IMG/VR virus record: IMGVR_UViG_3300005683_000011
Coordinates: 1,578 to 65,577 of that record
Reading direction: 5' to 3' (one strand)
DNA from: a virus
Lineage: Duplodnaviria > Caudoviricetes
DNA: 64,000 nucleotides
Positions 32,110-40,669 of this stretch are shown one piece after another. The stretch's first letter is position 1, and every line of letters starts with the position of its first letter. The notes below the pieces were generated by a model. That model was not told where the DNA came from. It worked only from the letters and a program-made list of their open reading frames with translations, and searched no databases. The position numbers and the translations under genes are program-made.

Positions 32110-32113
32110 GGAG

Positions 32114-32185
32114 GGTGTCTGGTGGGTTACGATCCCACGCCGTCCCCGTCACAAGGGGTTGCTCTACCGATTGAGCTACAGACAC
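32114..32185 (-). tRNA. tRNA-His(GTG)
   Basis: Acceptor GTGTCTG/CAGACAC plus C73; D arm GCTC/GAGC; loop TTGTGAC; atypical T loop ATCGTAA; no encoded CCA. Confidence 0.85.
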
Positions 32186-32187
32186 AG

Positions 32188-32260
32188 AGCCGAGGGTGGG
32201 AGTCGAACCCACAACATCCTGCCTACAAAGCAGGCGCTCTTCCAATTGAGCTACCCAGGC
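32188..32260 (-). tRNA. tRNA-Thr(TGT)
   Basis: Full cloverleaf; CCTGC-TTTGTAG-GCAGG; GTGGG-TTCGACT-CCCAC; one acceptor mismatch; no CCA. Confidence 0.9.
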
Positions 32261-32264
32261 ACAG

Positions 32265-32333
32265 TCTCAGACCGTTGAGTTGAACAACGCCATCAGAGCT
32301 TATGAGGCTCCGCTGGGCACCGGCCCGTCTGAG
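32265..32333 (-). tRNA. tRNA with CAT anticodon (Met or Ile2)
   Basis: CTCAGAC/GTCTGAG acceptor; GAGC-CTCATAA-GCTC; CGTTG-TTCAACT-CAACG; shortened D loop. Confidence 0.8.
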
Positions 32334-35751: not shown

Positions 35752-35772
35752 GCGTCTCGGTTGTTTATTCGA

Positions 35773-35806
35773 GGCGATCGGGAGTTGCGGCCCGGTCGCC
35801 TTTTTT
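35773..35806 (+). terminator. Intrinsic terminator
   Basis: GGCGATCGGG/CCCGGTCGCC hairpin followed by TTTTTT. Confidence 0.85.
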
Positions 35807-36426: not shown

Positions 36427-36563
36427 TTCGATAGGTTTGTTTGCTTCCCGCACGGGATGAGCTAGAGGAAACATAGGCAAGGATGCCACGAACGGAAGAA
36501 CGGTTGAGTGTTCAACCTTTCCGATTCGCTGGCATCACTGGCCTACACACTGGGGATTGCACC

Positions 36564-37991
36564 ATGGTTGCTACTCTGAAGGCGAGCAAGAACGGCAAGG
36601 CGAGCAAGGCGAGCAAGGGCGAGACGATCGGCGCGACGGTTGAGCGCATCCAAGAAACGCTCATCACGACGACGACGGAAGAGGCGCTTGCGACGACGAC
36701 GACGACGGAAGAGAACACCGCGCCCCCTGCGCCCGAAGCGCCCACTACGCCAGAGCAAGCGCAGGCGAACGCGGAAGCGCAGGCGAAGGAAGCGAACGCA
36801 AGGCAAGCTGCGGAGCGCGTGGAGAAGGACAAGGAAGCGCTGACCTACCTGAACGCGGGAACAAGCGCCTACGCCAGCGCGGCAACGGACGAACGGGAAC
36901 ACAAGCTGAGCGCTGGCGAGCAATTCGACGCATACCGCGCTAACCGCGTTGCGATCGGTGTTGACAGGGAGGTTGCTGTCAGCGCGATTGCTGCCGCGCT
37001 CGCCCCCCTGGCAATGGAGAAGATCGGCACGAACGAAGTGAACGCGATGATTCGTTCCTCGCATGCCCACAAGCTGCTTTTCGTGGCAACGGGCAAGGTG
37101 GAAGAGGCGAAGCAAATTCCGTACACGATGTACGCGAAAGCGCTGTCAACGCTCATCAGCGCTGTCGATCTGGGGAAGAAGACGGAGCGATACGTCATCC
37201 TCCCTGGCATCGAATCCGATTGCCACGCGCTGGCCGATTCCGTTTGCAAGGGCAATCACACTGTCACCAGCGCGACGGACAAGGCGCGGGAACTAAACCT
37301 CACCCTGGCGAAGAACCAAGCGGAAGAGGCACGCAAGGCGAAGGAAGAGAAGGAAGAGGCGCACAAGGCAGCGCAGGCAGCGCGGGAGAAGACGGAGAAG
37401 GAAGCGAAGGAACAAGCGGAGCGCCTTGCCCTTGCGGAGCAAGTGCGGAAGAGCGCGGAGAAGCAAGCGGAAGAGGCGAAGGACGATAGCGCCAGGGAGC
37501 AAGCGGAGCGCCAGCTTGCGGAGATGAAGGCGAAGGAAGAGCAACAGCGCAAGGACAAGGTGAACGCGGATTTCGCAGCTGAACAGGCGAAGCGCGAGGA
37601 AACGCGCTTGAAGCAAGAGAAGCGCGATGCGGACAAGCTGGCGACGAACGCGCAAATCCGCGCGGAGAAGGGCGAACGGCGCGAGCAAGAGCGCCAGGAG
37701 AACAAGGGCAGGGGCAACGGCGCGAGCAAGGACAAGGGCAAGGAAGAGGGCAAACCGGCTTGCCCTGGCGACTATGCCAAGATGAGCGTTGCCGACGTGG
37801 CCGCGCACTTGTTCGCTATCCTGGCGAAGCATGAGAAACCGCATAGCGTCCTTGCTACGCTCATCACGCATTGCGATAGCGCCCCGAAAGGCACGTTTGA
37901 CAACGCCACGATGCGAGGGATTCGCGCCTTCATCGACACCAGCAAGAAACCCGCCGTCAAGGACAATGGCCCGGACGGCGCGAGCAAGTAA
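36564..37991 (+). CDS. Ala/Glu/Lys-rich coiled-coil early protein
   Basis: Likely start MVATLK after GGGGATTGCACC; long charged helical segment; GCG/GAA-rich codons. Confidence 0.75.
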   Translation: MVATLKASKNGKASKASKGETIGATVERIQETLITTTTEEALATTTTTEENTAPPAPEAPTTPEQAQANAEAQAKEANARQAAERVEKDKEALTYLNAGTSAYASAATDEREHKLSAGEQFDAYRANRVAIGVDREVAVSAIAAALAPLAMEKIGTNEVNAMIRSSHAHKLLFVATGKVEEAKQIPYTMYAKALSTLISAVDLGKKTERYVILPGIESDCHALADSVCKGNHTVTSATDKARELNLTLAKNQAEEARKAKEEKEEAHKAAQAAREKTEKEAKEQAERLALAEQVRKSAEKQAEEAKDDSAREQAERQLAEMKAKEEQQRKDKVNADFAAEQAKREETRLKQEKRDADKLATNAQIRAEKGERREQERQENKGRGNGASKDKGKEEGKPACPGDYAKMSVADVAAHLFAILAKHEKPHSVLATLITHCDSAPKGTFDNATMRGIRAFIDTSKKPAVKDNGPDGASK

Positions 37992-37993
37992 CA

Positions 37994-38068
37994 GCGCGAA
38001 ACATTGACGCCAGGGATTCGCCCCCCTGGCGTTCTTGTCCTGGCGTAGGTGCGCCAGCTGATGAGCGC
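37994..38068 (+). ncRNA. Type II hammerhead ribozyme
   Basis: GCGC-GAAAC-(stem III hairpin)-GTC-(stem I CTGGCG/CGCCAG)-CTGATGA-GCGC; all core nucleotides present. Confidence 0.9.
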
Positions 38069-38105
38069 AGACACAAACGCTCTGGCATCCCGTAGGGATC
38101 GCACC

Positions 38106-38285
38106 ATGAACAAGAACCGTTGGATGTACACTGTCCAGTTCAATGAGGTTGAACAGCGCTGGCAACTGCGCAGGATCGACCGCGAGGAAGCGTATTGTCT
38201 CGCGCTGTCCGGGCATGCGATTCAGGCATTCGACACAAAGGAAGAGGCATCCCGCGAGCTATCCCGCGTCCGCAGCATGAGCTAA
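38106..38285 (+). CDS. Small hypothetical protein
   Basis: GGGATCGCACC-ATG start context matches the upstream gene. Confidence 0.6.
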   Translation: MNKNRWMYTVQFNEVEQRWQLRRIDREEAYCLALSGHAIQAFDTKEEASRELSRVRSMS

Positions 38286-38321: not shown

Positions 38322-38525
38322 ATGGCGACGTACAACGTCTACTCACTCACGAGCGTTCAAGAACCGATTGACCGCGTGATTATGTGCAACGTCTGCGCTC
38401 ATATTCTGTCGGATGCCGACCTTGACGCCGATCGTTGCCCGCACGGTTGCGACGACAACCCTTCCTGTCGGGGTTGCGGCGGTAAGCTGGCCTACAACGG
38501 TATGTGCATCTTTTGTTGCCGCTGA
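38322..38525 (+). CDS. Small Cys-rich zinc-finger-like protein
   Basis: CNVC, CPHGC, CRGC and CIFCC motifs. Confidence 0.65.
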   Translation: MATYNVYSLTSVQEPIDRVIMCNVCAHILSDADLDADRCPHGCDDNPSCRGCGGKLAYNGMCIFCCR

Positions 38526-39022: not shown

Positions 39023-39316
39023 CTACTCAGGTTGGAACTCCTCGCCAGCCAACGACTGTAGCTGGGCAATCGTCATGTCCTTGACGCCAGTCCGTTTCAT
39101 CAGGAAGTCGAGGTGTTCGTTGATGGCGCACACATCAGCGGCGGGCAACTCGTTTCCCATCAAGTGATCGCGACACATCATCAGCGTCTCACTCAATTGC
39201 TTGTACAGGTTACAGCCCTTGAAGCAGATATGCTTCGTCCGATGGGCCACGCGCAGGCAAAGCATGGCAATCGTTTCGGAGTCTTCGATCTGCTTCAACC
39301 GTGCCTTGTCAATCAT
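39023..39316 (-). CDS. Hypothetical protein
   Basis: Start MIDKARL overlapping the upstream stop. Confidence 0.55.
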   Translation of the reverse strand: MIDKARLKQIEDSETIAMLCLRVAHRTKHICFKGCNLYKQLSETLMMCRDHLMGNELPAADVCAINEHLDFLMKRTGVKDMTIAQLQSLAGEEFQPE

Positions 39317-40079
39317 CGATCTTCCTCTTCTTCCTTGGAGGGGGACTGAGCAGATGTCGCAACAGCCAACACCCTCTGCCATGGGGGCCACTCGATCGGC
39401 AGTGGTCAAGGATCACCTCGTTCGTACACCCTGCATCCTCTAACGCATCTGCCATGATCGGCATGATACCATAGTCACGGTTGACAATGCACTCCGTTGC
39501 CATCTCTGTGATGGTGTCGTTTGTGACCTTGGCGCATTCGGTGCATTTGGTGAGTGAGCAGATGCCCTTGCTCGCACATATGCCGCGCCCGCATAGGGTC
39601 GAGTAGGCCGGTATCCCCAGTATGTCATGCGCCAGCTGCTGGATGATCCGGTCACTGAACCCAGCCATGAAGTGACACATATTGATGGCGCAATGGAAGT
39701 TGACAAAGCCGTGCATATGCTGTTCAAGGCGTGGCTTCTCTGATGTGCGATAGAGGTAGCCAACAGCCAGGCCCACGATATGCGTCAACTTGCCAGGGTC
39801 GATGTCCTGCCATCGCTTCCAGTTGACGGGTGAGATGAGGGCACTCTGGGGTGTGGTGTGTTTGTACACCGTGTCCAGAATCCATCGCTCGTCGCTGGAG
39901 AAATCGAGGTTCGTCTGTCGAGCATGCTCATGGATCACGCCGTCAATGAACATCCTCCACAATCGCTCTTTCTTCACCGGGTCGCGAGGCGCTGGTGGTA
40001 GGCTGTGGTTCAATAGCTCTAGCGTTTCATGGACAGTTGGCGCATTCTCAACCCTTGATCTAGTCTTGGTTTGCTTCAT
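39309..40079 (-). CDS. Protein with the Gemmata-type C-terminal domain (often annotated SMI1/KNR4-like)
   Basis: MPIMADALEDAGCTNEVILDHCRSSGPHGRGCWLL. Confidence 0.8.
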   Translation of the reverse strand: MKQTKTRSRVENAPTVHETLELLNHSLPPAPRDPVKKERLWRMFIDGVIHEHARQTNLDFSSDERWILDTVYKHTTPQSALISPVNWKRWQDIDPGKLTHIVGLAVGYLYRTSEKPRLEQHMHGFVNFHCAINMCHFMAGFSDRIIQQLAHDILGIPAYSTLCGRGICASKGICSLTKCTECAKVTNDTITEMATECIVNRDYGIMPIMADALEDAGCTNEVILDHCRSSGPHGRGCWLLRHLLSPPPRKKRKIDD

Positions 40080-40669
40080 GGTATGACAATCGTCTCCTCT
40101 CGTTGGAGCCAGGCGTCCAGTTGGCGCAGACTCATCAGTTCGTGCCCCTCGACAACGTGGTTGATGATGTACGGCGTCGGGAATGGGCGAGCCGGGCGCT
40201 GATGGGTCAGCTGTGCATCGTACAGACCACGGAAGAACACGCGCCCATCCTCAAGGCGGTACTCGAACAGGCAGTAGATGTCGCAGATGCACTGAGTCGA
40301 AGCCTTGACGAGCAGCCGGGGGAACTCGCACTTAGAAGCCTTGACGTTAACGACGCGGCCATCGGGCAGGGTGAAGTCGCCAAGGTCCGTGCCCCGTTGG
40401 TTGGACCGAACGTGCGTCGTCTTGTCGCGAGGGATGCCGGTCATTTTGGAGAAGGCAACCTCGCCGATCGCACCATCGATGTTCACGGTGAGATCGTTGA
40501 TCGGCCCCTTCTTTCCTCGACGTGGTTTGACCTGAGACTTCGCACCGGAACCAAGGGTGGCGCGGTTCCTGGCATCGGCGAAGTCAATCGACTCCTTGAT
40601 TTCCTCCTTGGTGAGGAAGAACGAGAAGTCACGATTGATCTCTTCGAGCGGACGGGGGACATTGCCCAT
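40076..40669 (-). CDS. PD-(D/E)xK nuclease-like protein
   Basis: GAIGEVAF helix, D.GD and V.VK motif. Confidence 0.6.
   Translation of the reverse strand: MGNVPRPLEEINRDFSFFLTKEEIKESIDFADARNRATLGSGAKSQVKPRRGKKGPINDLTVNIDGAIGEVAFSKMTGIPRDKTTHVRSNQRGTDLGDFTLPDGRVVNVKASKCEFPRLLVKASTQCICDIYCLFEYRLEDGRVFFRGLYDAQLTHQRPARPFPTPYIINHVVEGHELMSLRQLDAWLQREETIVIP

Follow-up and report, generated by a model that had tools for sequence, protein, structure and literature searches.

A putative type II hammerhead ribozyme between the genes of a complete 65.6-kb phage genome, and its relatives in a widespread family

Type II hammerhead ribozymes occur in bacteria, phages, and metagenomes, often between the genes of prophages (PMC3088659). 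In their published consensus, stem II is short, and loop I forms a pseudoknot with bases 3' of stem II (PMC3088659). For the clusters that these ribozymes form in prophages, the proposed role is to divide long phage transcripts into mRNAs of gene length (Perreault et al. 2011; PMC3088659). Bacterial twister ribozymes are found in similar gene contexts, and the processing of polycistronic transcripts has been proposed for them as a role that is still unproven (Weinberg, Weinberg and Hammann 2019; PMC6765202). Phage intergenic hammerheads have been known since 2011, and what they do for the phage is likewise still unproven.

Type I and type III hammerheads, such as those of sTRSV, Schistosoma, and CChMVd, have a stem I of about 6 bp and a stem II of 4 bp (PMC2632901). 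[quoted passage not shown] (2009) proposed this U.A pair as a common motif of natural hammerheads (PMC2632901). The ribozyme described below follows type II in its topology and resembles types I and III in the lengths of its stems I and II and in the bases that would make this contact.

The window, by which we mean the whole stretch of 64,000 nucleotides that was analyzed, comprises bases 1578 to 65577 of a 65,577-bp IMG/VR virus record (IMGVR_UViG_3300005683_000011) that is rated complete by CheckV. Its G+C content is about 59%. Searches against cultured phages by blastn and tblastn found no close cultured phage; the best match to the capsid protein was that of Stenotrophomonas phage BUCT555, at 23% identity. 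The genome has a structural arm and a nonstructural arm on opposite strands (Table 1). The nonstructural arm points away from the capsid operon and begins with a gene for a K/E-rich protein, which can be called early by assumption only. The capsid operon and this plus-strand arm are separated by a divergent region of 1.1 kb, in which we also observed a strong terminator-like hairpin at positions 35771 to 35802 (+), made up of 12 pairs followed by TTTTTTCG.

Table 1. Features of the window that surround or make up the hammerhead site (positions are those of the window)
Feature	Position	Strand	Remarks
Structural genes, including terminase, major capsid protein, and internal virion protein	~2.9 kb to 35.4 kb	minus	
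Cluster of three tRNA genes: His-GTG, Thr-TGT, Met-CAT	32113-32333	minus	just downstream of capsid gene
Nonstructural arm	from 36483	plus	DNA methyltransferase, AAA ATPase with VWA/metallopeptidase protein, resolvase, RecT
Upstream gene, K/E-rich protein	36483-37991	plus	502 aa from first ATG; ORF list
Unpaired A just 5' of stem II	37993	plus	equivalent of 3' A of loop 2
Complete type II hammerhead (75 nt)	37994-38068	plus (coding strand)	intergenic
Stem II 5' strand, GCGC	37994-37997	plus	positions 11.4-11.1; pairs with 38065-38068
Core G12-A13-A14 and A15.1 (GAAA)	37998-38001	plus	aligned to RF02276 core
Stem III hairpin, 38 nt	38001-38038	plus	predicted fold
Predicted cleavage site, C17 (38039)/C1.1 (38040)	38039-38040	plus	hammerhead core numbering
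Stem I hairpin, 6 bp	38040-38057	plus	CUGGCG 38040-38045/CGCCAG 38052-38057
Core C3-U4-G5-A6-U7-G8-A9 (CUGAUGA)	38058-38064	plus	Rfam alignment
Stem II 3' strand, GCGC	38065-38068	plus	positions 10.1-10.4; followed by A38069
Translation-initiation motif GGGATCGCACCATG of 59-aa ORF	38095-38108	plus	contains CACC 38102-38105
First downstream ORF, 59 aa	38106-38285	plus	ORF list
Second downstream ORF, 67 aa, cysteine-rich	38322-38525	plus	ORF list
Third downstream ORF, about 92-114 aa	38555-38899	plus	last plus-strand ORF before convergent genes
Convergent genes	39023-40669	minus	beyond third small ORF

The helices of the element follow one another in the order of a type II hammerhead (stem II 5' strand, GAAA, stem III, UH, stem I, CUGANGA, stem II 3' strand). 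The conserved core nucleotides are all intact, and the 13 core-proximal pairs of the three stems are all Watson-Crick. The G10.1-C11.1 pair is present, A38001 (A15.1) pairs with U38038 (U16.1), and H17 is C38039, not G. Near the core, stem III consists of ACA 38001-38003 paired with UGU 38036-38038; a 2x2 internal loop follows, and then a distal helix of 10 bp (38006-38015/38024-38033) that is closed by a loop of 8 nt. Loop I is UAGGUG (38046-38051), in which U38046 is position L1.1. The core, the permuted topology, the capped stems I and III, and the open stem II are all shared with RF02276 and with the type II ribozymes of Perreault et al. (PMC3088659), and the Rfam consensus, like our element, begins with an unpaired A before stem II. 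The original prediction had placed a complete type II hammerhead here, 3 nt after the stop codon of an early gene; each of its elements was found where it had been placed, with the core and the G10.1-C11.1 pair intact. The element is on the coding strand between two genes and begins at the third base after a TAA stop codon. For the isolated 75 nt, both the minimum free energy structure and the centroid structure are exactly the three-stem hammerhead (z = -4.1).

A type II descriptor run on both strands of the window matched this site and no other, and descriptors for types I and III matched nothing in the window or in related loci. As a control for chance, we used 2,000 dinucleotide-preserving shuffles of the window. 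A loose descriptor found 71 matches in the 2,000 shuffles (0.036 per window), and a descriptor set at the observed quality (stem I of at least 6 bp and stem II of at least 4 bp) matched in 2 of 2,000, or about 0.001 per window. Since the latter rate is not negligible over very many windows, the case should not rest on it alone. Neither a relaxed type II descriptor nor the covariance model R1, described below, detected a further copy in the window or in loci L003 to L013. A weak R1 match in L004 proved, on reading, not to be a hammerhead.

Among Rfam families, the best match to the site was RF02276 (Hammerhead_II, clan CL00010), with an end-to-end alignment that scored 19.1 bits and E values of 0.16 (local search, all families) and 0.008 (one family, whole genome). 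A check against type II models had been suggested with the original prediction, and it came out mixed: the expected family ranks first and aligns over its full length, but the score lies below the gathering score of 37 bits. This shortfall reflects the bias of the model toward the subtype with a short stem II and a pseudoknot, together with the 38-nt stem III, and is not owed to any missing defining nucleotide. Rfam matches of 11 to 15 bits in the related genomes G000, G002, G006, and G009 were taken to be noise, as control genomes score alike.

The score below threshold would also suit a chance look-alike, in which GAAA and CUGAUGA flank two GC-rich hairpins by accident, one of the hairpins possibly being a weak terminator (38007-38033, with UUCUUGUC after it); at about 0.001 chance matches per window, some such sites are expected over the very many windows scanned. 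We nevertheless regard this explanation as highly improbable. The terminator scan did not flag the stem III hairpin, so that we rejected it as a terminator, and the site lies between genes, on their coding strand. The comparisons that follow bear on the same question.

We searched more widely with a DNA pattern in which only the core and four stem I pairs were fixed, while the other stem positions, stems II and III, and the flanks were left free. Its matches lay in viral contigs, in metagenome stretches (at least 120), and in 24 bacterial genomes of great diversity. Covariance model R1 was built from four sequences, one of which was the window copy; in their alignment, 52 of 52 cells were paired, and all five of the pairs that vary had changed on both sides. 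Alignment A3 is correct only outside distal stem III, and because it is unreliable there, only the 13 core-proximal pairs were modeled. The window copy scores 68 bits against R1, a value that is to be read as that of a seed and that even so speaks against a chance look-alike. Among the matches listed, R1 found 155 in 84 sources, and many of these were extra copies that the pattern had missed.

Alignment A4 contains 141 distinct hammerheads that share a common build, with a 6-bp stem I and a 4-bp stem II. Standard pairs fill 99.9% of its 1828 cells, 10 of the 13 pairs change on both sides, the covariation score was reached by none of 500 shuffles, and pairing falls to between 25% and 42% in slid-partner controls, all with the caveat that the family was partly ascertained by a pattern derived from the window copy and that A4 was fitted to R1. 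The pairs that covary include all six of stem I, the second and third of stem II, and the third of stem III. Position H17 is C in 133 of the 141 members. The window copy falls toward the edge of the family in two respects: its stem III of 38 nt is at the long end of a range of 14 to 46, and its loop I has 6 nt, compared with 5 nt in 124 of the 141. The same UAGGUG loop was found in two unrelated members (L104:4951-5046 and L095:865-934). As far as sequence comparison can carry it, this comparative evidence is decisive support for a true type II hammerhead at the site.

We scanned 12 loci at the Rfam threshold (L066, L055, L104, L098, L038, L097, L064, L075, L022, L023, L091, and L103). Three hammerheads passed the RF02276 gathering score, at 39 to 44 bits, and two of them (in L075 and L097) are members of A4, which ties the set to the curated family. 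Where RF02276 at its gathering score finds only these three hammerheads in 12 loci, R1 finds dozens, and they are well paired. The Rfam threshold thus misses most of a subtype that has a 4-bp stem II and no pseudoknot. Such under-detection of an abundant subtype by the Hammerhead_II model matters for the annotation of phage genomes.

Within the clade of the phage itself, a search with the capsid protein returned 12 related viral contigs (55 to 80% identity). The closest of these, L002 (80% capsid identity), carries another type II hammerhead at positions 1913 to 1858 (-), which scores 23.1 bits with RF02276, again below the gathering score of 37. Relative to the window copy, this ribozyme has two compensatory pair changes in stem I and two in stem II, and a homologous ribozyme with compensatory changes in a related phage argues further against a look-alike. 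Its loop I, UAGUG, resembles that of the window copy, and both have AGA after stem II. The L002 hammerhead lies upstream of the orthologous K/E/R-rich gene, whereas the window hammerhead lies downstream of the K/E-rich gene. Five other loci extend upstream of their capsid gene, one of them (L010, record G009) being part of a complete 56-kb genome, and no hammerhead was detected in any of the five. The ribozyme is therefore sporadic in its own clade, and its position is not conserved, a patchy distribution that is more in keeping with a mobile module that the phage can do without than with a fixed essential element.

The ribozymes of the family share a gene layout, in which an upstream stop codon is followed, in most members after -1 to +4 nt, by the ribozyme and, some 20 nt further on, by a ribosome-binding site (RBS) and a start codon. 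In 89% of cases, the end of an upstream ORF (50 codons or more) lies within -10 to +20 nt of stem II, compared with 17% at random positions in the same loci. Frequently, the upstream stop codon takes in the conserved A or the first stem II base. A start codon preceded by a Shine-Dalgarno sequence lies 5 to 45 nt after stem II in 78% of cases (18% at random). The median gap from stop codon to stem II is 1 nt, and the first plausible start within 150 nt lies at a median of 21 nt after stem II. The window copy fits this layout, with gaps of 2 nt (the TAA stop at 37989-37991 is followed by C37992 and A37993 and then by the ribozyme) and 37 nt, and such family-typical spacing to both the stop and the start would not be expected of a look-alike.

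On many contigs, these ribozymes form arrays of 8 to 13 or more copies, with one between each pair of neighboring small genes. In the metagenome loci L066, L055, L104, L098, and L038, we observed arrays of 4 to 13 or more copies spaced about 300 to 700 nt apart. L022 is a fragment of a T7-like phage with an integrase that has a complete hammerhead at 312-372 and another (GUC, 5-bp stem I, CUGAAGA) at L022:1-52 (+) that is incomplete at the start of the locus; the two copies are about 300 nt apart and therefore both flank a single 95-aa ORF. The same hammerhead, with its flanks, is found on the viral contigs L023 and L024 (also L031), of 112,670 and 177,773 bp, where a TAG stop comes directly before it and an ATG preceded by AAGGAG follows 22 nt after it. 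The prophage hammerhead clusters of Perreault et al. (2011, Figure 3) similarly lie between small phage genes of unknown function. In contrast to those clusters, the phage described here has a single copy and not an array.

Little can be said from homology about the genes on either side of the ribozyme. The K/E-rich protein matched no Pfam or PHROG family, and in the database copy (P0001) it starts at ATG 36564, which makes it 475 aa long. Its homologs are P0002, the closest relative (78% identity), which is encoded on a 65,239-bp contig, and P0003, which comes from a JGI contig of 1,294 bp. The latter carries the JGI name "DNA polymerase III gamma/tau subunit," which is probably a low-complexity artifact, because Pfam and PHROG give no family match. 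The conserved part of the K/E-rich protein is the C-terminal stretch of about 70 residues, which is weakly common to a 437-aa protein of L002. The 59-aa ORF had no match in Pfam or PHROG and no relatives among viral contigs, and the 67-aa ORF likewise had no match in Pfam or PHROG. Searches of viral and metagenome contigs with the 502-aa, 59-aa, and 67-aa proteins and with alignment A1 returned no related loci. Two small proteins had been predicted to be encoded downstream of the ribozyme; instead, there are three ORFs (Table 1) before the convergent genes begin.

We then considered how stems I and II might be docked. Three features that the search did not impose point to the U.A contact of natural hammerheads. 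L1.1 is U in 136 of the 141 members. Position -1, just 5' of stem II, is A in 137 of 141, and in 70 of the 73 in which no stop-like triplet overlaps it. On the 3' side of stem II, the adjoining base is a purine in 115 of 141. The window copy has all three (U38046, A37993, and A38069), and the presence of the U and the -1 A is further evidence that it is no look-alike. The sequence of its loop I, UAGGUG, agrees with the UNmYN motif of natural hammerheads (PMC2632901), and the U at the start of loop 1 and the A that closes the 3' side of loop 2 correspond to those of types I and III (PMC2632901). Two differences apply. In the window copy, "loop 2" consists of the open flanking ends of the mRNA, A37993 (5') and A38069 (3'), and we infer the contact from conservation, whereas in the hammerheads of PMC2632901 the pair is seen in crystal structures. 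From the pattern of conserved bases, stems I and II are most likely docked by a loop-loop contact between U38046 and A37993.

The original prediction had proposed a different contact, in which GGUG of loop I would pair with CACC immediately before the next ATG, so that activation of the ribozyme could be coupled to translation. The position of CACC (38102-38105), directly before ATG 38106-38108, is as predicted, but the contact itself was not supported. Across 139 members, loop I is no more complementary to the 45 nt that follow stem II than expected by chance (3.05, versus 2.98 +/- 0.06 in permuted pairings), and a 4-bp match between loop and tail occurs in 22% of members. Neither of the two members with an identical UAGGUG loop has CACC before its start codon, and L002 has no equivalent of the GGUG/CACC pairing. 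Unlike the published type II ribozymes, then, the window copy and its 140 relatives combine a 4-bp stem II with no excess of complementarity between loop and tail. We rejected the pseudoknot, or translation-coupling contact, on these grounds, and it is not likely to be the docking contact.

The CACC sequence also has another context. It is part of a 14-nt motif, GGGATYGCACCATG, that consists of an RBS-like GGGA, a spacer, and ATG, and that has exactly two copies in the window. One is the copy in front of the 59-aa ORF (Table 1); the other, which has T as its Y, covers 36553-36566 and stands at the start of the K/E-rich gene, a place without a ribozyme. Both copies are preceded by CTGGCATC, and the region made up of GGGATYGCACCATG and CTGGCATC looks like a duplicated translation-initiation region, to judge from its sequence.

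In a broader form, the same complementarity could make a translation-coupled switch, in which GGUGCG (38048-38053) pairs with CGCACC (38100-38105) before the AUG and in which ribozyme folding and access to the start site affect each other, the helix being either an activating contact or a competing one. The complementarity is real and can be extended from 4 to 6 bp, and in a context of 121 nt this helix dominates the predicted ensemble (pair probability of 0.91) and displaces stem I. With more context, however, its probability drops to 0.49 and then to 0.12. The chance-level complementarity across the family, the members with a UAGGUG loop and no CACC before their start codons, the lack of an equivalent pairing in L002, and the occurrence of CACC in the start-site motif of a gene that has no ribozyme all weigh against such a switch, and what the family keeps is instead the U and the A of the loop-loop motif. 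We consider the switch quite improbable and return to docking by the U.A contact as the preferred reading.

A hammerhead by descent may still be a catalytically dead or very slow relic, and we asked how well the window copy is placed to fold. With flanking sequence included, the predicted equilibrium probability of the full hammerhead fold is low (0.0006 to 0.004). An octamer, CCUGGCGU/CCTGGCGT, occurs twice, at 38026-38033 in the 3' strand of stem III and at 38039-38046 in C17 and the 5' strand of stem I, and because it is repeated in both hairpins, stems I and III can swap partners. The repeat is probably incidental, because L002 has no such repeat. Loss of activity could be laid to the long stem III with its internal loop, to the 6-nt loop I, or to competing folds, and each has some footing: few members have a stem III longer than its 38 nt, most have a loop I of 5 nt and not 6, the octamer allows mispairing of stems I and III, the in-context fold probability is low, and the ribozyme is patchy among relatives. 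Set against these points, the tertiary-motif U and A are intact, as are the G10.1-C11.1 pair and every core nucleotide; all 13 of the core-proximal pairs are Watson-Crick, and two other members have a UAGGUG loop as well. For the family, a fold probability of this size in context is also typical, as it lies in the normal range between the 17th and the 40th percentile. That the ribozyme is a relic therefore seems to us a poor bet, about on a par with the switch, and we take positions 37994 to 38068 to be, almost certainly, a genuine type II hammerhead.

Our preferred model, in which we have considerable confidence, is that a genuine hammerhead sits inside a plus-strand unit of four genes, docks its stems by the U.A contact, cuts between 38039 and 38040, and so separates the cistrons. 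During transcription, stem III and then stem I would form as local hairpins, after which the 4-bp stem II would close the three-way junction, and the core would cut the chain between C38039 and C38040. The upstream RNA, which carries the K/E-rich gene, would be left with a 2',3'-cyclic phosphate end, with the long stem III hairpin directly before it. In the downstream RNA, which carries the three small ORFs, the new end would be a 5'-OH at which the stem I hairpin starts, and the first AUG would follow 66 nt later. Ends of these two kinds, a cyclic phosphate next to a hairpin and a 5'-OH next to a hairpin, should slow exonucleases and the 5'-end-dependent entry of RNase E.

A transcript split after 38039 is the natural reading of the sequence, and cutting a multigene transcript between genes is, by analogy, most likely the role of the ribozyme. 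Because the cut would separate the cistrons, the two halves could differ in stability and in translation. There is some likeness to RiboJ-type insulators, in which a hammerhead lies tens of nucleotides upstream of an RBS and leaves the downstream message with a fixed 5' end that begins with a hairpin, independent of the sequence further upstream. RiboJ is engineered from the type III hammerhead of a satellite RNA, and the likeness to the window copy is in mechanism only. Viroid and satellite hammerheads serve in rolling-circle replication, whereas the window copy is set in a phage mRNA.

We speculate, as an unlikely but specific alternative, that the tight abutment of stop codon and ribozyme is functional and not a matter of genome compaction, which would make the element a translation-gated switch for intercistronic processing. 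While a ribosome was finishing the upstream gene, it would hide the GAAA and the 5' strand of stem II, and the ribozyme could fold and cut only after translation of the upstream cistron had ceased. The A at position -1, in the open "loop 2," would then double as a base of the tertiary contact and as stop-codon context.

The window hammerhead belongs to a large and already known kind of phage ribozyme. What the window offers is a clean, single-copy case in a complete 65.6-kb phage, in which a large gene is followed by a ribozyme and then by three small genes. The shared layout, together with the U and A bases that are kept although loop 2 is open and no pseudoknot is formed, could turn transcript processing by phage hammerheads into a specific and testable model.
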